Virus record (IMG/VR): IMGVR_UViG_2537562172_000004
Coordinates: 1 to 7,251 of that record
DNA from: a virus
Taxonomy: Duplodnaviria; Heunggongvirae; Uroviricota; Caudoviricetes
Strand: one strand, 5' to 3'
Length of the DNA: 7,251 nt
Below the pieces are notes generated by a model that was given only the letters and a program-made list of their open reading frames with translations, ran no database searches and was not told the origin of the DNA. The translations under genes were made by a program, and so were the position numbers. Shown here piece after piece: positions 2,056-7,251 of this stretch. The stretch's first letter is position 1. Each line of letters starts with the position of its first letter.

Positions 2056-2277
2056 ATGCGTCCGAACATTACAATCATCATCCCTGAGCCATACCTGCCT
2101 TTAGACGAGTATTGCCGCCGTACTGGTACCAACAAAGAAACCGCCAGGAACCTGATCGAATACGGGAAATTACCTATTAAGCCGAAGGGTAAGCAGAAGA
2201 AAGGCTTGGTCGAAGTCAACATGGCCGCGCTCACTATTCAGGCTTTAAGCGAATGTGACATTTCGCTTAACGCGTAA
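2056..2277 (+). CDS. apl: Apl/Cox-like excisionase and switch regulator
   Basis: 73-aa ORF from ATG 2056, preceded by GGAG at 2044-2047 (8-nt spacer). The track ORF starts at an upstream TTG (2023) with no SD. First gene rightward of the switch. Segment PYLPLDEYCRRTGTNKETARNLIEYGKLP resembles the DNA-binding region of P2 Cox as I recall it. Confidence 0.7.
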   Translation: MRPNITIIIPEPYLPLDEYCRRTGTNKETARNLIEYGKLPIKPKGKQKKGLVEVNMAALTIQALSECDISLNA

Positions 2278-2307
2278 TCCATCCTACGGATTCGGGAGAG
2301 GCAAACA

Positions 2308-2811
2308 ATGTTTGATTACCAGACCTCTAAACATGCGCACTTTGATGCGGCTTGCCGAGCATTTGCAATTGAGCACAATCTTGAAGATGTGGCCGCTGCC
2401 GTTGGTATGAGGCCGCAGATCCTGCGCAACAAACTGAACCCAGCACAACCGCACCGCCTGACCTGTGATGAGCTTTTGGCTATCACGGATTACACCGAAG
2501 ATGCGCGTTTGCTTGATGGGATGTTAGGTCAGATTAACTGCCTTCCATCCGTGCCGGTGAACAATGCCACAGAAGGCAACATGCAGTTGTGCGCACTGAG
2601 TGCCACAGCCAGTGTGGGCGCGATTGCTGGGGAAGCCGTATCAACTGGCTATATGACTGCCGCCCGCCGTACTCAAATTCTGGATCGTGCCCGCGATGCA
2701 ATCCGTAGCTTATCCGTGCTGGCTTATACCGTTGAAAGCCGTATTCACTCTGCGCCTGTTCTGGCTGCGGCGGTGGAGCTGGTCACAACCAACGCCACCG
2801 GCCTGATGTGA
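2308..2811 (+). CDS. cII: CII-like HTH transcriptional activator (186 type)
   Basis: 167-aa ORF; SD GGGAGAGG 6 nt upstream of the ATG. HTH-like segment LEDVAAAVGMRPQILRNKL. Size and position (second gene of the rightward operon) match 186 CII (169 aa). Confidence 0.75.
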   Translation: MFDYQTSKHAHFDAACRAFAIEHNLEDVAAAVGMRPQILRNKLNPAQPHRLTCDELLAITDYTEDARLLDGMLGQINCLPSVPVNNATEGNMQLCALSATASVGAIAGEAVSTGYMTAARRTQILDRARDAIRSLSVLAYTVESRIHSAPVLAAAVELVTTNATGLM

Positions 2812-2820
2812 GGGAACACC

Positions 2821-2994
2821 ATGAAAGCGTTTGTCACTTACCTGAAAAAAGAATCACCAGCCATGCAGTTGCCGAGTGGTTCAACGGGCTGGATAGAACT
2901 GCCAAACGGTCAGCGCTGGAACCCTGGCCACATGTACAAATTCAATGGCCAGCAGCCGCGCCGCCCGTGGTGGCGTCGTCTGATGGGACTATAG
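2821..2994 (+). CDS. Small hypothetical early protein (57 aa)
   Basis: Not in the ORF track. ATG 2821 is preceded by GAGGGAA (2810-2816); stop TAG at 2992-2994. Translation MKAFVTYLKKESPAMQLPSGSTGWIELPNGQRWNPGHMYKFNGQQPRRPWWRRLMGL. Occupies the slot that fil/dhr-type small early genes take in 186; homology not established. Confidence 0.4.
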   Translation: MKAFVTYLKKESPAMQLPSGSTGWIELPNGQRWNPGHMYKFNGQQPRRPWWRRLMGL

Positions 2995-3002
2995 GGGGCG
3001 TT

Positions 3003-3269
3003 ATGGCGATTAGCCAGGAACAGCAAAAGCGCGGGCTGGAGCATTTAAAACAGATCCGCCGCAAATACTTCAACGAAAGCAGCGAGGCCGCTGAATGGTG
3101 GGACAACTTAACACCGGAGTGGCGCGGCGTGGTGCTTCATGCTGCTGCGGTTACTTCTGGTTCCGGGGCATTTAAAGCCCACTTAAGCAAATGTTGCTGG
3201 CGTGAGATTTATGAACGCCTGGGCTATCGGGACATGATTCAACTGCGCCAACGCAGAAACGACCGTTAA
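3003..3269 (+). CDS. Small hypothetical early protein (88 aa)
   Basis: ATG 3003 is preceded by AGGGGG (2993-2998). It is the C-terminal part of track ORF 2808-3269, whose GTG start overlaps the cII stop; I prefer the internal ATG with its SD. Translation begins MAISQEQQKRGLEHLKQIRRKYFNESSEAAEWWDNL. Confidence 0.5.
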   Translation: MAISQEQQKRGLEHLKQIRRKYFNESSEAAEWWDNLTPEWRGVVLHAAAVTSGSGAFKAHLSKCCWREIYERLGYRDMIQLRQRRNDR

Positions 3270-3305
3270 GAATATTGCATTTAACTACATAGTGAGACTC
3301 GCATA

Positions 3306-3893
3306 ATGACTTTTAAAATGAGTGAAACCGATCAAACAGTTACTGTTTATAACCTGCGTTCCGACACGAATGAATTTATTGGTTCAGGTGATGCTTTTAT
3401 TCCTGCGCATACTGGACTGCCAGCCAACTGCACAACAATAAAACCACCGGTAATCAAAGTGGGGTTTGTGGCAATTTTTGATTCAGAGAAGCAAAGATGG
3501 ATTTCCCGTGAGGATCATCGTGGTGAGGTGGTGTTTGATACAGAAAACGGTAATGAACTGGTGATCACCGAGCCAGGTGTTTACCCGGAAGGGACAACCA
3601 CGTTAGCACCGGCTAATGCCTGGCAAAAATGGAATGGTAAGGCGTGGGTGGATGATGCGGAGGCCATGCGAATTGTATTAGTCAGCGAGGCAGACGCCGA
3701 AAAGAAAAGCCTGCTTAAACAGGCCAATGACGCCATTGCCACATTGCAGGATGCCGTTGATTTAGACATGGCAACCGAAGAAGAAGCACTGCTGCTTACC
3801 GCATGGAAAAAATACCGCGTTTTACTGAATCGTATTCAACCGGAAGATGCGCCGGAAATTGTGTGGCCGGAGGTGCCTGGAAATGTGGCGTGA
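3306..3893 (+). CDS. tfa: Tail fibre assembly protein (lambda Tfa / P2 gpG family)
   Basis: 195-aa ORF. The N-terminus MTFKMSETDQTVTVYNLRSDTNEFIGSGDAFIPAHTGLPAN and the C-terminal block LLTAWKKYRVLLNRIQPEDAPEIVWPEVP match the conserved ends of lambda Tfa-family proteins as I recall them. No tail fibre gene precedes it. Confidence 0.85.
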   Translation: MTFKMSETDQTVTVYNLRSDTNEFIGSGDAFIPAHTGLPANCTTIKPPVIKVGFVAIFDSEKQRWISREDHRGEVVFDTENGNELVITEPGVYPEGTTTLAPANAWQKWNGKAWVDDAEAMRIVLVSEADAEKKSLLKQANDAIATLQDAVDLDMATEEEALLLTAWKKYRVLLNRIQPEDAPEIVWPEVPGNVA

Positions 3894-4608
3894 AGCACGT
3901 CTGGCCTTTACGGATTCTGTTGCTGCTCTGAACTGTTCGATCGTCCCTGCGCATCCGTGGATTTATGGGCTGGGACAGCAGACAGCGAATGGGGCATATC
4001 TCAGTCCGGTTAATGCCGTTCGCTATCTTGCTGAACGCCTGGCCGGAACTGGAGGGAATGCGGACGTGGTGATTATGATGGTCACCGGACAGACGCAGGA
4101 AAACTTTATGGTCAGCCTGAATAACCTGGTCGGGATATTCCCCGCCCCGGCATTCACGCAGGTCAAACGGCTGGCGCAATCTGCCGCAGCTCTGGCTATT
4201 GAAAAGATGCAGATCCCTGCGAAATCCGGCGCTGCGTTACCTGCGTCCATTCCGCTGTCTGTACCAACCAGCAGGGTTGCTTTATCTGCTGCGGCAATCA
4301 GCCAGGCACAAAAGGCGGCGGGTGCCGGGTTTGATATCGAAGGGCTGAAAAAACAGCTGGGCGAGTTCACGCAGCTGCGTGACCAGCTTATCAGTGACGT
4401 GGTCAGCGGCCTGAATGATTTACAGGGAAAAAGTGCCAGAGCGTGGGTTTTTACTGCCAGCGGAGACACCGGCACCACGTTACTGGAACTGATGAAGGAC
4501 ATTCCGCAGCAGTCTGCCGTTTACACCGCAGCCATGATGCTGGTTGGTGATAATCTTGATGGAATAAAGGGAATGATTCATGACTTCGATCCCGACACTG
4601 GCGCTTAA
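3883..4608 (+). CDS. Uncharacterised protein A (241 aa), first of a coupled three-gene module
   Basis: ATG 3883 with GGAGGTG at 3869-3875; overlaps the tfa stop by 11 nt. The track start at ATG 3847 has its only purine-rich stretch (GGAAG, 3842-3846) directly abutting the ATG. Globular-looking N-terminal half, Ala-rich C-terminal half (SAAALAIEKMQ, ALSAAAISQAQKAAGAG). No Walker or nuclease motif seen. Confidence 0.7.
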   Translation: MWREARLAFTDSVAALNCSIVPAHPWIYGLGQQTANGAYLSPVNAVRYLAERLAGTGGNADVVIMMVTGQTQENFMVSLNNLVGIFPAPAFTQVKRLAQSAAALAIEKMQIPAKSGAALPASIPLSVPTSRVALSAAAISQAQKAAGAGFDIEGLKKQLGEFTQLRDQLISDVVSGLNDLQGKSARAWVFTASGDTGTTLLELMKDIPQQSAVYTAAMMLVGDNLDGIKGMIHDFDPDTGA

Positions 4609-5125
4609 TGGCGAGGCCATCCAGCTGAAAAACATGCGGGTGACCGTTTCACAGCAGTTTCAGGATAAAGATCAGTCCGGCCAGACCAGCGCCACAACAA
4701 AATCAGAGCAGGGAGCAAAGGGAAAGGAACTGCGGATCAGCGGTGAAATACCTTTTAAACAGCCTGAAATACTGAAGCGTATTTTTGAGCTGGCCAGTGC
4801 TACCGATGCCAGTGGTAATCGTCAGAAGTACCGCGTGGCGCATGAAGTTGCCCGTGCAGTTAATTTTCGTGAAGCAACGTTCAGCGGAATGCTGGATGCG
4901 CCCCAGCAGGACGGGAAAATGTCCTGGCTGGTGACATTCACACTGGCGGAACATATCAGCGTGCAGGAAAAGCGAGAGGCCAGGGCAACAGGTAAGACGA
5001 CCGCAAAAAAACAGACTGCCGGTAGTGCGGGACAGTCCGGTGGCCAGTCTGCCGGAGAGGATGAAGAAAAACTGACGTGGTTTGAACGCAAGGTGCTGAA
5101 GCCCGTCAATGATGCTTTGGGTTAA
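4580..5125 (+). CDS. Uncharacterised protein B (181 aa), low-complexity Gln/Ser/Gly/Thr/Lys-rich segments
   Basis: ATG 4580 with GGGA at 4569-4572; overlaps the end of A by 29 nt in another frame. Two low-complexity stretches (QDKDQSGQTSATTKSEQGAKGKE; ARATGKTTAKKQTAGSAGQSGGQSAGEDEEK) flank a more ordinary core. Confidence 0.7.
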   Translation: MTSIPTLALNGEAIQLKNMRVTVSQQFQDKDQSGQTSATTKSEQGAKGKELRISGEIPFKQPEILKRIFELASATDASGNRQKYRVAHEVARAVNFREATFSGMLDAPQQDGKMSWLVTFTLAEHISVQEKREARATGKTTAKKQTAGSAGQSGGQSAGEDEEKLTWFERKVLKPVNDALG

Positions 5126-5127
5126 TA

Positions 5128-6828
5128 ATGAAACCAGTAAAACGTCTTTACCTTTCAACGGATGAAATTCACCTGGTGGATGCCAGCCTGGTACTGGAGC
5201 TGAACAGCTGCGGTCGGGGCTTCATCACCGCAGAGACAACAACCGATTACACCGGAAAACTGGTGCGGCTGGATGTGGGGTATACCGATCTGCTTTTGCG
5301 CTGGTTTACGGGGTACGTGGAGCGATCGCAGCCCGCAGAAAACGGTTTTCAGCGTCTGTTCATTCGTGAACTGGTAGGTGTGTTTGAAAGGATGTGGCCA
5401 TGTTCGTTTCAGCACCCGACTTTGCGTGAAATTGCGGGCTGGCTGGAAGAAAACAGCGGGATCACGGTCAGTGTGCCTGATGCACAGTACAGCGATACCC
5501 CTATCCCACATTTTACTCATAACGGTACCGGCTATCAGTTGCTGAACAATCTGGGCAGGGCGTTCAGTATCCAGGATTACATCTGGTACCAGTTGCCTGA
5601 TGGTTCGCTTTACGTCGGCGGTGCAGAAAAGTCATTGTTTGCCGGTCGTCCCGTAGAAATCCCGTCAGAGTTCAGCCAGGGGGCTGCTGGTGGTAACTCT
5701 GTGACATTACCAGTGATCCAGACTATGCGGCCAGGGGTGGAGATGAACGGTGAACGCGTGACTAAAGTTCACCTGACTAATGACACGATGGCGATCACAT
5801 GGACGCCGAGAAACCGCGCAACGGGTAAACCTTTGCAGAAAACACCGGCGCAACGGCAGATTGAAAGCCATTACCCGGAACTGGCATCCGGGCTTCATTT
5901 GCCAAAGATGGCCAGAGTCGTGGCGCATTCAGAGCCGGTAAAAAGCGGTAACTTTGCCGATCCCTTCCGTCCACGTTACGCCGTGGACGTGCAGCTGCTT
6001 GACGCAGACGGAAATCCGGACAATCAGACACCTGTTTATTCAGCGGTGCCGCTGCCGGTACCAATGGCCGGGAATGATTCGGGTATGTTTCAGTTTCCGC
6101 CAGAAGGGACGCTGGTTGAGGTTGCATTCACGGGAGGCAGACCGGATAAACCCTTTATCAGGCAGACCCTGCCGGATGGTACCAGCCTGCCGGACGTTAA
6201 ACCCGGTGAGCAATTGCAGCAGCAGCGGGAAGAAGTATGCCAGAGAGTGACGCAGGCTGGAGACTGGGTAAGGCAGACCGATCAGACCATCAGAGAAACA
6301 TCAATGGTGCGAACCGTAAAAGCCGATACAGAACAGCGCGAGCTGGTCAGCCGTGAAACCACGGTGAAAGCCACGGATAAAACCACGGTACTGGGAACCG
6401 CCACACTGCTGGCCGGAGCCATCCAGCATGTAAGCGCCGGTGATTATAGCCAGGCGGTGAAAGGTAACAGGCTGGCCAGCATTGAAGGGAATGACGAAAC
6501 TGAGATAACCGGGAAACAGTCCACTAAGGTGGCGGGAGCCGTAGATGTGGATGTGGGGGGAACCCTGACTGAAAAGATTGCTGCATTACGCAAATCGGTG
6601 GCATCGGGCGGTCAGCAGATTATGGGGCCAACCGTCCATATCGGCAGTGAAAGTGTAAACACGCTGACCATGATGTTGGACACCATTGATTTACTGGCAG
6701 AGCTGGCGCAGCAATGTGCGAGTCATTCGCACCCCAGTGTTGGTACGCCAACCAATGCCGGAGCGTTTACCCGGACGGCGACAAAGGCCGGACAGACCCG
6801 GAGCAAGTACCAGAACATCATTGCCTGA
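5128..6828 (+). CDS. Uncharacterised protein C (566 aa), bipartite with Thr/Gly/Ala/Val-rich C-terminal part
   Basis: ATG 5128 lies 2 nt after the B stop. Long uninterrupted ORF. Ordinary-looking N-terminal ~330 aa; C-terminal part rich in T/G/A/V with an HSH tripeptide near the end (QQCASHSHPSVGTPTNAGAF). No P-loop seen. Confidence 0.8.
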   Translation: MKPVKRLYLSTDEIHLVDASLVLELNSCGRGFITAETTTDYTGKLVRLDVGYTDLLLRWFTGYVERSQPAENGFQRLFIRELVGVFERMWPCSFQHPTLREIAGWLEENSGITVSVPDAQYSDTPIPHFTHNGTGYQLLNNLGRAFSIQDYIWYQLPDGSLYVGGAEKSLFAGRPVEIPSEFSQGAAGGNSVTLPVIQTMRPGVEMNGERVTKVHLTNDTMAITWTPRNRATGKPLQKTPAQRQIESHYPELASGLHLPKMARVVAHSEPVKSGNFADPFRPRYAVDVQLLDADGNPDNQTPVYSAVPLPVPMAGNDSGMFQFPPEGTLVEVAFTGGRPDKPFIRQTLPDGTSLPDVKPGEQLQQQREEVCQRVTQAGDWVRQTDQTIRETSMVRTVKADTEQRELVSRETTVKATDKTTVLGTATLLAGAIQHVSAGDYSQAVKGNRLASIEGNDETEITGKQSTKVAGAVDVDVGGTLTEKIAALRKSVASGGQQIMGPTVHIGSESVNTLTMMLDTIDLLAELAQQCASHSHPSVGTPTNAGAFTRTATKAGQTRSKYQNIIA

Positions 6829-6840
6829 CCATTCCAGACA

Positions 6841-6868
6841 GCCCGCAAAACGCGGGTTTTGTCGTTTT
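6841..6868 (+). terminator. Rho-independent terminator of the rightward operon
   Basis: Stem CCCGC (6842-6846) pairs with GCGGG (6852-6856) around loop AAAAC, followed by TTTTGTCGTTTT. Located 13 nt after the stop of protein C. Confidence 0.75.
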
Positions 6869-6918: not shown

Positions 6919-7251
6919 ATGAAAAATTTCATTATATTAGCTGTAGGGGCAGCAGTTTCATTTAATGTGTTTGCGGCTGAGGTTGTTTATGTGCCAACAG
7001 ATACGAAGGCTAGTTACACGATTTTAGATAAGACTCGCGACGGCAGCATGGCTACTATAACAACTGAAAGAAAGGGGCCGTCTGGAACATCATATTCAAA
7101 GCGGCTGTACGACTGTACTGCCGGGACAGTTAAATATCTTGGAGACGGTGAGACCATCGAGCAGATGAATAACTCAGCACCAGATCCAAATATGGCCCCT
7201 ATAGTTGACCGCTCAATTGCATACTACATTGGACAAAAAGCCTGCCAGTAA
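6919..7251 (+). CDS. Small secreted (signal-peptide) protein, 110 aa, function unknown
   Basis: ATG 6919 with AGGA at 6907-6910. N-terminus MKNFIILAVGAAVSFNVFA-AEVV has a Lys at position 2, a hydrophobic core and a likely VFA-A cleavage site. Mature part has two Cys (LYDCTAG, QKACQ). Codons look more A/T-rich than the upstream operon by eye. The track's longer form from 6859 would start inside the terminator T-tract. Window ends exactly at its stop. Confidence 0.65.
   Translation: MKNFIILAVGAAVSFNVFAAEVVYVPTDTKASYTILDKTRDGSMATITTERKGPSGTSYSKRLYDCTAGTVKYLGDGETIEQMNNSAPDPNMAPIVDRSIAYYIGQKACQ

Follow-up and report, generated by a model that had tools for sequence, protein, structure and literature searches.

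Gene content of the locus

The window, that is, the whole stretch of 7,251 nucleotides analyzed here, carries a tail gene module in the order TFA, a PHROG 1677 gene, a PF25759 gene, Protein C and a terminator. The same synteny is found in HP1, K139, phiO18P and ESSI2_ev015. Apart from a deletion junction, all features given below are on the plus strand. Protein C has 566 aa and is encoded at 5128..6828 from an ATG start, and our ORF listing agrees exactly with the original prediction. The ATG lies 2 nt past the stop codon of the upstream gene orf181, and a strong intrinsic terminator begins 12 nt past the stop of Protein C. This terminator (6840..6868) consists of a 7-bp stem, in which 5 pairs are GC, and a downstream TTTTGTCGTTTT, and it ends the late tail operon. 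K139 has an annotated terminator, T39, in the equivalent position. The ORF is a real gene, because it has more than 1,200 homologs and a full-length match to PHROG 2258, 'baseplate protein' (E 1.2e-278, residues 1-566 against profile positions 1-544 of 544).

Two partner genes were found upstream. The first (3883..4608) belongs to the HP1 orf33 family and is the third member of a conserved orf33-34-35 module, as indicated by PHROG 1677 (E 3e-75) and by its synteny in HP1, K139, phiO18P, ACA2 and ESSI2_ev015. It has no Pfam or PDB match, and profiles of the orf33 and orf34 families found nothing among PDB sequences. The orf33 homolog gp46 has been found in ACA1 virions by mass spectrometry. The second gene, orf181 (4580..5125), belongs to the HP1_ORF34 family (Pfam PF25759, E 4e-54), and its ACA2 homolog is annotated as 'putative gpU-like'. 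The core of its AF2 model has a pLDDT above 90. Foldseek pairs this model with baseplate chains of Pa193, E217, PhiTE, Bas63, Pam3 and Mu, and also with tube proteins and Hcp (E 2e-4 to 4e-3). The model points to a tube-family fold, and orf181 is probably the tube initiator seated on the hub.

The surrounding region is a defective E. coli prophage remnant between mntS and mntR. In blastn against ESSI2_ev015, window positions 2218-3250 correspond to phage positions 26414-25382, and positions 3249-6860 to phage positions 3816-204. At the junction (3249..3250), an early gene runs into what is left of the tail-fibre gene, its last 57 nt. About 21.6 kb has been deleted, which cost the prophage its genes for replication, head, tape measure, sheath, tube, wedge and fibre but left that of Protein C intact. 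Therefore, Protein C cannot function here by itself. No tRNA genes or direct repeats of use for marking att sites were found in the window.

As to its present role only, Protein C might simply be carried along in a dead prophage and decay, or the TFA-orf33-orf34-orf35 block might be kept for the host or for a resident P2/HP1-like phage. The deletion took everything needed for tail building, the retained genes are intact, the 4-kb segment being 99.975% identical to that of an intact prophage, and E. coli strain 573 retains the same right-end module after an independent deletion. In DNA, this segment with TFA, orf33, orf34 and the Protein C gene is 99.975-100% identical to those of the intact relative prophages in E. 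coli 1919D3 and CM2010-0578/1. However, near-identity to intact prophages indicates a very recent deletion, so that intact reading frames need no selection, and the sparing of a terminal block on two occasions needs only that deletions begin in the interior. In addition, expression is doubtful, because the late-gene activator gp26 of the intact phage is lost here. We regard this reading as quite unlikely. As to what the protein is, it is very probably the central hub-spike of a contractile tail of the HP1-like type (Peduoviridae, ESSI-2/Quadragintavirus-type), with equivalents of P2 gpD and gpV in one polypeptide and the layout of a T6SS VgrG. This is where its homology and fold, the order of its domains, the conservation of its motif and its synteny, all established here, place it.

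Orthologs and fused or split relatives

By tblastn, Protein C matches HP1, HP2, K139, phiO18P, F108 and ESSI-2 across 100% of its length. Identity is 95% to the ESSI2_ev015 baseplate protein (YP_009877566.1) and 34-42%, across the entire length, to HP1 orf35, HP2 orf35, K139 orf39 and phiO18P gp46. In HP1, K139, phiO18P and ESSI2_ev015 the ortholog is the last tail-operon gene, behind homologs of orf33 and orf34. Judged by sequence, Protein C is an ortholog of HP1 orf35 (UniProt P51739), K139 orf39 and the ESSI-2 'baseplate protein', and is already catalogued as such. In RefSeq, it is still a 'hypothetical protein', as are its orthologs from E. coli and Salmonella. It shares with the HP1 orf35 group full-length family membership, the terminal place in the tail operon and the invariant HxH. 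It differs in that the beta-helix is longer by 24-32 residues (3-4 octads) in the ESSI-2/E. coli lineage and in that its gene sits in a deleted prophage.

The best 150 representatives at 50% identity include 66 spike-only proteins, starting from query residue ~241, 10 hub-only proteins covering query residues 1-227, and 11 fused proteins. As these alignments read, hub and spike are two separate genes in most relatives of Protein C. Phage ACA2 has the two halves annotated separately, as 'gpD-like' and 'cell puncturing device', and the gpD-gpV fusion in HP1 was already noted in a 2023 paper. The virion mass spectrometry that covers hub and spike comes from a single Pseudoalteromonas phage in which the two homologs are split, and the spectra are few.

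Domain organization and predicted fold

The AF2 monomer model of Protein C has a mean pLDDT of 89. Foldseek against the PDB matches it over its full length with VgrG-type hub-spike fusions (E 3e-18 to 1e-15), which include the AlgoCIS VgrG-like 7aef_q (3.4e-18), the T6SS VgrG structures 9jg9 and 8gra (~1e-17 to 1e-15), Pvc8 and Afp8. Separate hubs also match, among them those of PhiTE (1.2e-10), Mu gp44 (1wru, 5.8e-9), the MuSo2 43 kDa protein (1e-8), P1, E217, Bas63 and pyocin R2, as do the spikes Mu gp45 (6e-5), R2 pyocin PA0616 and SN Orf41. Matches in BFVD carry the names 'Phage protein D', '43 kDa tail protein' and 'Late control GPD'. The check suggested with the original prediction, structure prediction followed by Foldseek, thus returned VgrG/Cis8/Pvc8/Afp8 fusions, gp27-type hubs and gpV/gp45-type spikes. 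The original proposal of a phage central spike or hub protein is supported by this fold, by a beta-helix match to T4 gp5, by a profile match to VgrG and by a conserved HxH.

The hub domain covers residues 1-235 (5128..5832) and is a short member of the gp27 / P2 gpD / Mu gp44-like type, as delimited by stand-alone homologs, Foldseek and BFVD. Stand-alone hub homologs of 225-245 aa, one of them annotated 'P2 gpD-like' in ACA2, span query residues 1-227; the Foldseek output comes without query ranges, and the hub-like fold may be read as extending over 235 or over about 270-300 residues. Pfam finds no family in residues 1-241, Phage_GPD included, even up to E 10. In hhalign, a 62-sequence family alignment gave a probability of 0.3% against the single P2 gpD sequence and also below 1% against P2 gpV. 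Single-sequence templates are too weak for this comparison, and fold comparison and published HHpred results were therefore relied on. Since there is no sequence match to Phage_GPD or P2 gpD, membership among the hubs rests on the fold and on those HHpred results. At about 235 aa this hub is short beside the 285-390 aa of solved hubs, and part of the hub functions may therefore reside elsewhere.

The spike module starts with two short helices at residues 240-254 (5845..5889), assigned by DSSP on the AF2 model, and the alignments of stand-alone spike homologs start at residues ~241-249 of the query. In phage A-1(L), the N-terminal helix of the spike binds the C-terminus of the tape-measure protein, and by analogy helices 240-254 may have a tape-measure-binding role. 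An OB-fold region follows at residues ~260-383 (5905..6276), recognized by Pfam, the family profile, AF2 beta strands and Foldseek. Pfam Phage_base_V reaches 22.8 bits on residues 308-344, 1 bit below its cut-off of 23.8, and the family profile matches the OB fold and beta-helix of VgrG 8gra with E 2.7e-7 from profile position 309. Residues ~395-505 (6310..6642) form the triple-stranded beta-helix region, assigned by phmmer, Pfam Gp5_C and octad register. Its repeats have 8 residues each, with Gly at octad position 6 or 7. By phmmer, residues 412-507 match crystal structures of the T4 gp5 C-terminal beta-helix (E 2e-10), and Pfam Gp5_C, with 25.1 bits, exceeds its cut-off of 20.4. In the AF2 monomer this region is extended, without intramolecular strands.

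These boundaries correct part of the original description. The three peptides that it quoted are present, with first residues 411, 468 and 530, and the C-terminal part is rich in Thr, Gly, Ala, Val and Gln as stated, these five making up 47.8% of residues 337-566 and 35.1% of residues 1-336. However, there is no domain boundary at residue ~330, where a bipartite split had been placed. The genetic boundary between hub and spike is at about 235-241, where stand-alone homologs stop or start, and the repetitive beta-helix begins at ~395. Residues 241-383, which had been counted in an 'ordinary' N-terminal half, are already spike.

A beta-rich repetitive C-terminal half could also belong to a receptor-binding tail fibre or tailspike that binds the host surface instead of piercing it. 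Such repetitive trimers occur along phage fibres too, and HxH iron cages are documented in fibres and tailspikes (bioRxiv 10.1101/2023.02.25.529910; PMC12407873). The Protein C gene adjoins tail-fibre and fibre-assembly genes, and one database record labels the C5a homolog 'tail spike'. However, the significant structural matches are all hubs, central spikes and VgrG, with 0 fibres among the top 50 PDB matches. The N-terminal part has the gp27/gpD hub fold, the OB fold in the middle is typical of central spikes, and the intact phage has its own tail-collar fibre and chaperone. A fibre is thus very unlikely.

The top Foldseek matches are VgrG and eCIS spikes and the family profile matches VgrG, which would also suit a bacterial T6SS VgrG, or another non-phage contractile injection spike, located here by chance. 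We consider this extremely unlikely. TIGR01646, the only NCBIfam match, stays below threshold at 16.1 bits against a cut-off of 121.8, and T6SS/eCIS genes (Hcp, TssBC) were not found within the window. The orthologs are the terminal tail gene of the plaque-forming phages HP1, K139, phiO18P and ESSI-2, and Protein C has its own HxH tip, not the blunt end that takes a PAAR protein. Protein C works like VgrG but is not classed as one. The least likely of all is the originally mentioned alternative of an internal ejection or pilot protein, a P22 gp16-like DNA conduit in the cell envelope, which has in its favor a general resemblance of the Thr/Gly/Ala-rich C-terminal half and against it the lack of any ejection-protein family in Pfam, PHROG, NCBIfam and PDB searches, a fold that is confidently hub, OB and beta-helix, and a phage that is a myovirus with sheath and tube. 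An enzymatic (lysozyme) spike was rejected as well, no supporting family or fold match being found.

The HxH apex

The apex region covers residues 506-566 (6643..6825), as defined by AF2 secondary structure and conservation. The model places in order G506, N511, a helix at 512-531, the HSH loop, P541 and a helix at 544-561, with block pLDDT values of 74-91. In the alignment of relatives G506, H533 and H535 are invariant and N511 and P541 near-invariant, and both helices keep a 3-4 hydrophobic spacing across 28 divergent relatives. The HSH near the C-terminus, first pointed out in the original prediction, is His533-Ser534-His535 (codons at 6724..6732), an HxH 'histidine cage' motif by translation and conservation. 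It is the sole H-x-H of Protein C and lies 31 residues before the C-terminus. One HxH by chance is not improbable in a 566-aa protein with 12 His (estimated probability about 0.25), and the motif is meaningful because it is conserved, not because it is merely present. Neither His varies among HP1, K139 and phiO18P. The HxH is present in 48/52 aligned relatives, and it falls inside the last 70 residues in 70 of the 77 cluster representatives (<= 50% identity).

A C-terminal HxH is the mark of an Fe-loaded apex and predicts that there is no tip protein (bioRxiv 10.1101/2023.02.25.529910; PMC12407873). By its sequence, the HSH of Protein C is this mark, which the literature reads as the sign of a spike that has an iron-binding apex built in. 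A separate PAAR tip protein is thus not expected. The ESSI2_ev015 annotation has no second gpD-, gpV- or PAAR-type gene, and a Pfam scan of ten ESSI2_ev015 tail-module proteins gave no gpD-, gpV- or PAAR-type match. Protein C also lies outside the PAAR-capped class in that it runs 60 residues beyond the beta-helix and carries its own HxH. How much the HSH matters for function is uncertain. In P2, loss of the apex costs only about a factor of two in plating efficiency, and laboratory infection does not need the apex or its His cage (bioRxiv 10.1101/2023.02.25.529910).

PF18946, the 'GpV Apex motif', is matched by 2 of 28 family C-termini (best E 3.6e-5, 24.1 bits against a cut-off of 20.8), and Pfam finds no family, PF18946 included, in the C-terminal 71 residues of Protein C itself. 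A profile of the last 70 residues found nothing significant among all PDB sequences (best E 0.59, a ciliary protein), so that the apex is shared at the sequence level with no solved structure. The model suggests a helical apex, a predicted trimer of hairpins, as opposed to the beta-structured apex of P2 gpV, and this is only a mildly new point. We tentatively propose that the HP1/ESSI-2-type iron-cage tip may differ in kind from those of P2 gpV, phi92 gp138 and the R2 pyocin spike, a reading about which we remain somewhat doubtful. In it, a G-x4-N cap would be followed by a three-helix coiled coil of helix 512-531, the chain would reverse at the HxH with the His cage at the extreme tip, and helix 544-561 would pack outside, giving a six-helix 'trimer of hairpins'. 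This arrangement would be like those of P22 gp26 and class I fusion proteins. Some members of the family have L-x-V instead of HxH, and others end in C-x-x-C...P-H.

Comparison with other contractile systems

P2 gpD and gpV (3QR8) have the same functions and the same order of parts, namely hub, N-terminal helix, OB fold, triple beta-helix and HxH apex. Both phages are Peduoviridae, and there is a local motif likeness between gpV ...LHTHKHPGDSGGTTGSP and Protein C ...ASHSHPSVGTPTNAG. However, P2 uses two polypeptides and Protein C one, and hhalign detects no sequence similarity. The hub of Protein C has about 235 aa compared with 387 aa, and its beta-helix is made of gp5-like octads. Its HxH lies between two predicted helices of 18-20 residues, while that of gpV lies in a beta-structured cone of 21 residues.

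The VgrG and eCIS spikes (VgrG1 4MTK/4UHV, 8GRA, Alg8 7AEF, Pvc8 and Afp8) are the best whole-length structural matches and have the same fused gp27-like, OB and beta-helix parts. VgrG and Pvc8 have a blunt end and a separate PAAR cap, in contrast to the HxH tip and the phage context of Protein C. In the comparison with T4 gp27-gp5, the beta-helix is the sole part with direct sequence similarity, and octads of the VxGxxxxx type are common to both. Protein C differs in having no lysozyme domain, a fused hub and spike, an HxH apex and no gp5.4 PAAR tip. Mu gp44 (1WRU) and gp45 (9KI1_V), as well as R2 pyocin PA0628 and PA0616, match both halves by fold and come from simple baseplates with HxH-type spikes. 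They differ in being encoded by separate genes and in having larger hubs, and no helical apex flanks are described for them.

Proposed mechanism

Trimer formation, iron binding, membrane piercing and the helical-hairpin shape of the tip are what we infer for Protein C, and the steps of the mechanism follow by homology with P2, Mu, T4 and R-pyocin. Three copies would assemble on the tail axis. Residues 1-235 would form the hub ring, which would carry the hexamer of the orf181 tube initiator and contact gpJ/gpI-type wedges. The hub would be closed by helices 240-254 and the OB fold (~260-383), which would probably also contact the tape-measure protein at its end. Residues ~395-505 of the three chains would intertwine into a rigid triple beta-helix needle, with the last 60 residues as its tip, where the three HxH motifs (His533 and His535 of each chain) may form an octahedral cage around an iron ion. 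On contraction of the sheath, the needle would be driven across the outer membrane in front of the tube. The needle would then leave the tube end, allowing DNA passage.

Significance

Protein C can be named as a baseplate hub/central spike fusion (gpD-gpV-like), and the value of this is mainly one of annotation. The inner baseplate of HP1-like Peduoviridae is a three-gene terminal module of orf33, the tube-fold orf34 and the hub-spike orf35. This module stands in for the U, D, V and X genes, which are spread over two operons in P2. The helical HxH tip, if real, would be a second structural solution for the spike apex, of moderate interest for the engineering of tailocins and contractile injection systems. 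If our reading is true, the cage replacements in the family would form a natural set in which the purpose of the cage could be studied. Finally, the fused and split forms inside one family show by what route a VgrG-like layout comes about.

Gene and family

Protein C is encoded on the + strand from the ATG at 5128 to the end of its stop codon at 6828 (566 aa), exactly where the original prediction had placed it. It is a real gene, with more than 1,200 homologs. Its ATG follows the stop codon of the upstream gene by 2 nt, and a strong intrinsic terminator lies 12 nt past its own stop. Its match to PHROG 2258 ('baseplate protein') is full-length (E 1e-278). Tblastn gave 95% identity to the baseplate protein of ESSI2_ev015, an intact related Escherichia phage, and 34-42% identity over the whole of Protein C for HP1 orf35, HP2 orf35, K139 orf39, phiO18P gp46 and the F108 homolog. 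In each of these phages the ortholog is the final tail-operon gene and is preceded by homologs of HP1 orf33 and orf34.

Fold and domain organization

Protein C is very probably a hub-spike protein. Residues 412-507 match crystal structures of the T4 gp5 beta-helix (E 2e-10), and residues 417-496, written in rows of eight, repeat in gp5-type octads whose sixth or seventh residue is Gly. The protein scores above the cut-off of Pfam Gp5_C and 1 bit under that of Phage_base_V, the spike OB-fold domain, while the family profile is colinear with the VgrG of T6SS over the OB fold and beta-helix (E 2.7e-7). An AlphaFold2 model built from a 62-sequence alignment had a mean pLDDT of 89. When this model was compared with the PDB using Foldseek, fused hub-spike proteins ranked first (AlgoCIS, 3.4e-18; T6SS VgrGs, 7e-18 to 1e-13; Streptomyces and Anabaena CIS, Pvc8 and Afp8), followed by separate hubs (PhiTE, Mu gp44 at 5.8e-9, MuSo2, P1, E217, Pa193, Bas63 and pyocin R2) and then by separate spikes (Mu gp45, pyocin PA0616 and Orf41 of phage SN). 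Named matches among predicted viral structures were 'Phage protein D', '43 kDa tail protein', 'Late control GPD' and 'XkdQ'. Neither of the outcomes named in advance as refuting the proposal of a central spike or hub protein, a confident unrelated fold or a lack of spike-like architecture, was seen; the proposal is supported by the sequence matches, the model and the Foldseek results.

Judged from sequence matches, Protein C is genetically modular. We searched the cluster representatives at 50% identity exhaustively, and the best 150 matches included 66 stand-alone proteins of about 250-440 aa starting near query residue 241, 10 stand-alone proteins of 225-245 aa spanning query residues 1-227, and 11 proteins fused like Protein C. 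For the two halves, the annotation of Pseudoalteromonas phage ACA2 gives 'P2 gpD-like protein' and 'cell puncturing device'. Since stand-alone homologs cover 1-227 or start at about 241, we delimit a hub (residues 1-235), two short helices (240-254), an OB fold (~260-383), a beta-helix (~395-505) and a C-terminal region of 60 residues. The helices are placed like the spike N-terminal helix of phage A-1(L), which binds the tape-measure C-terminus. The previously suggested bipartite boundary near residue 330 falls inside the OB fold and marks no domain limit. The C-terminal part is richer in T/G/A/V/Q, as claimed (47.8% of residues 337-566 vs 35.1% of the first 336), and the three peptides quoted from it are present, starting at residues 411, 468 and 530. 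In the ESSI-2/E. coli lineage the beta-helix is 24-32 residues (3-4 octad repeats) longer than in HP1, K139 and phiO18P; the family thus includes needles of different length.

The C-terminal apex

The HSH motif noticed near the C-terminus is found at residues 533-535 (nt 6724-6732) and is the sole H-x-H in Protein C. An HxH alone means little, because with 12 His in the protein we estimate the chance of one at about 1 in 4; the motif carries weight because it is conserved across relatives. Neither His varies in an alignment with the HP1, K139 and phiO18P orthologs (36-43% identity), 48 of 52 aligned relatives keep both, and 70 of 77 cluster representatives (<=50% identity) have an HxH within their 70 C-terminal residues. 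The Pfam 'GpV Apex motif' model was reached by two family members (best E 3.6e-5), and the window's own Protein C sequence did not match it. The apex strings of P2 gpV (LHTHKHPGDSGGTTGSP) and Protein C (ASHSHPSVGTPTNAG) are similar. The HSH is a putative metal-binding motif.

The surroundings of the motif appear to differ between the two proteins. The P2 gpV apex is a C-terminal region of 21 residues, 191-211 (bioRxiv 10.1101/2023.02.25.529910), whereas in the model of Protein C two confident helices, 512-531 and 544-561, flank the loop that holds the HSH. Among 28 divergent relatives, the first helix has paired hydrophobics with 3-4 spacing (512/513, 515/516, 519/520, 522/523, 526/527 and 530/531) and the second a single hydrophobic stripe (547, 554, 557, 561 and 564); G506 is invariant, and N511 and P541 nearly so. 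A search of the PDB with the apex-region profile found no match. Because this pattern in both helices is what such a bundle would show, we tentatively suggest that the apex could be a helical trimer-of-hairpins iron cage, with a central three-helix coiled coil, three outer helices and a His cage at the turn. A few relatives lack the helix-HxH-helix ending. P0306 and P0324 carry L-x-V at the position of the HxH, which makes them a naturally occurring parallel to the hydrophobic-core gpV mutant, and P0203 and P0206 end in C-x-x-C...P-H after a longer beta-helix.

Spikes with their own HxH apex are proposed to have no separate PAAR tip protein (PMC12407873). Neither a PAAR gene nor a second gene of gpD or gpV type appears in the ESSI2_ev015 annotation, and a Pfam scan of ten tail-module proteins of this phage found no PAAR, gpD or gpV family. 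The families detected were gpR-like, gpS-like (sub-threshold), sheath, tube, chaperone, tape measure, DUF2590, gpJ-like and gpI-like (sub-threshold), the DUF2590 gene occupying the place of gpW in the P2 gene order. This gene content fits an HxH spike that needs no PAAR tip.

Neighboring genes

The gene directly upstream, orf181 (4580-5125, +), belongs to Pfam PF25759 'HP1 ORF34 baseplate complex protein'. Its AlphaFold2 model has a tube-family (tail-tube/Hcp-type) fold with core pLDDT >90, predicted disorder at residues 129-164 and then a C-terminal helix. The best fold matches were baseplate chains of Pa193, E217, PhiTE, Bas63, Pam3, phiCD508 and Mu, followed by tail-tube proteins and Hcp. 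Given the tube fold and the matches to baseplate chains of solved myophages, orf181 is probably the tube initiator, equivalent to gpU. The fold also fits the tentative label 'gpU-like' of the ACA2 homolog and the role of P2 gpU, a tube-initiator hexamer seated on the gpD hub trimer (bioRxiv 10.64898/2026.09.14.750843). In Pseudomonas phage phi3, an open 557-aa ORF (2982-4655) is homologous to the entire fused protein; the deposited annotation calls just its C-terminal 323 codons (3684-4655) as a gene and labels the tube-fold gene upstream 'nucleoid DNA-binding protein'. Both are probably mis-annotations.

Before orf181 lies an HP1 orf33-family gene (PHROG 1677; 3883-4608, +, with a longer ORF from 3847). 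Its protein has no relative in Pfam, NCBIfam or the PDB. In every HP1-like phage examined the gene stands next to that of the hub-spike, and the ACA1 homolog was detected in virions by mass spectrometry. This baseplate component may correspond to the P2 'glue' protein gpX. Past the operon terminator, a small ORF (6919-7251, +; PHROG 13843), at whose stop codon the window ends, has a signal-peptide-like N-terminus (MKNFIILAVGAAVSFNVFA...) and relatives of 110 aa; it looks like prophage cargo (a moron).

A gutted prophage

The window is an E. coli chromosomal segment beginning at mntS and holding an ESSI-2-type prophage (Peduoviridae, genus Quadragintavirus, HP1-like branch) integrated between mntS and mntR/ybiR. 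Because the left ~130 nt are mntS, 5,422 of 5,426 complete E. coli genomes 'match' it. Neither a tRNA gene nor an att-type direct repeat was found inside the window. The left part of the prophage encodes integrase, a 186-type CI repressor, Cox/Apl, CII and Fil. At 3249/3250, position 25382 in early gene gp34 of ESSI2_ev015 is joined to position 3816, and the right side starts with the last 57 nt of the tail-fiber gene. About 21.6 kb is absent, including the replication, head, sheath, tube, tape measure, wedge and fiber genes; the ORF at 2808-3269 crosses the junction and is therefore partly a fusion artefact. The late region retains the fiber-assembly gene (TFA), two small genes and Protein C. 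As this block is 99.975% identical at the DNA level to that of intact prophages in other E. coli strains, Protein C is an intact gene within a recently gutted prophage. E. coli strain 573 (NZ_CP102853.1, 7377-11661) carries another deletion, independent of this one, in which a truncated replication endonuclease is fused to the 3' end of the fiber gene and the TFA-orf33-orf34-orf35 block is again retained. The sparing of the terminal module in both may be coincidence or preferential retention.

Proposed function and relation to known systems

By analogy with P2, Mu, T4 and R-pyocins, Protein C most likely trimerises on the tail axis. Its hub would nucleate the baseplate and carry the tube initiator and tube; sheath contraction would then drive the beta-helix, with its putative Fe-caged tip, through the outer membrane, and the protein would be released after piercing. 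Such action is impossible in this window because the remaining tail genes are deleted.

Protein C resembles VgrG in fusing gp27-like and gp5-like parts. We rejected a VgrG identity on its score (16 bits vs a TIGR01646 cut-off of 121.8), the phage context and the protein's own tip. Functionally it corresponds to P2 gpD and gpV combined, with a short hub of ~235 aa, and no sequence similarity was found between its family and either P2 protein. The hub-spike finding is already known, in kind and in family: a 2023 paper noted the gpD-gpV fusion in HP1, and PHROG-based annotation has the family as 'baseplate protein'. In practice, proteins still 'hypothetical' in RefSeq can be given a better name, and on the structural side there is a modest, model-based hypothesis on what the shape of the tip may be.
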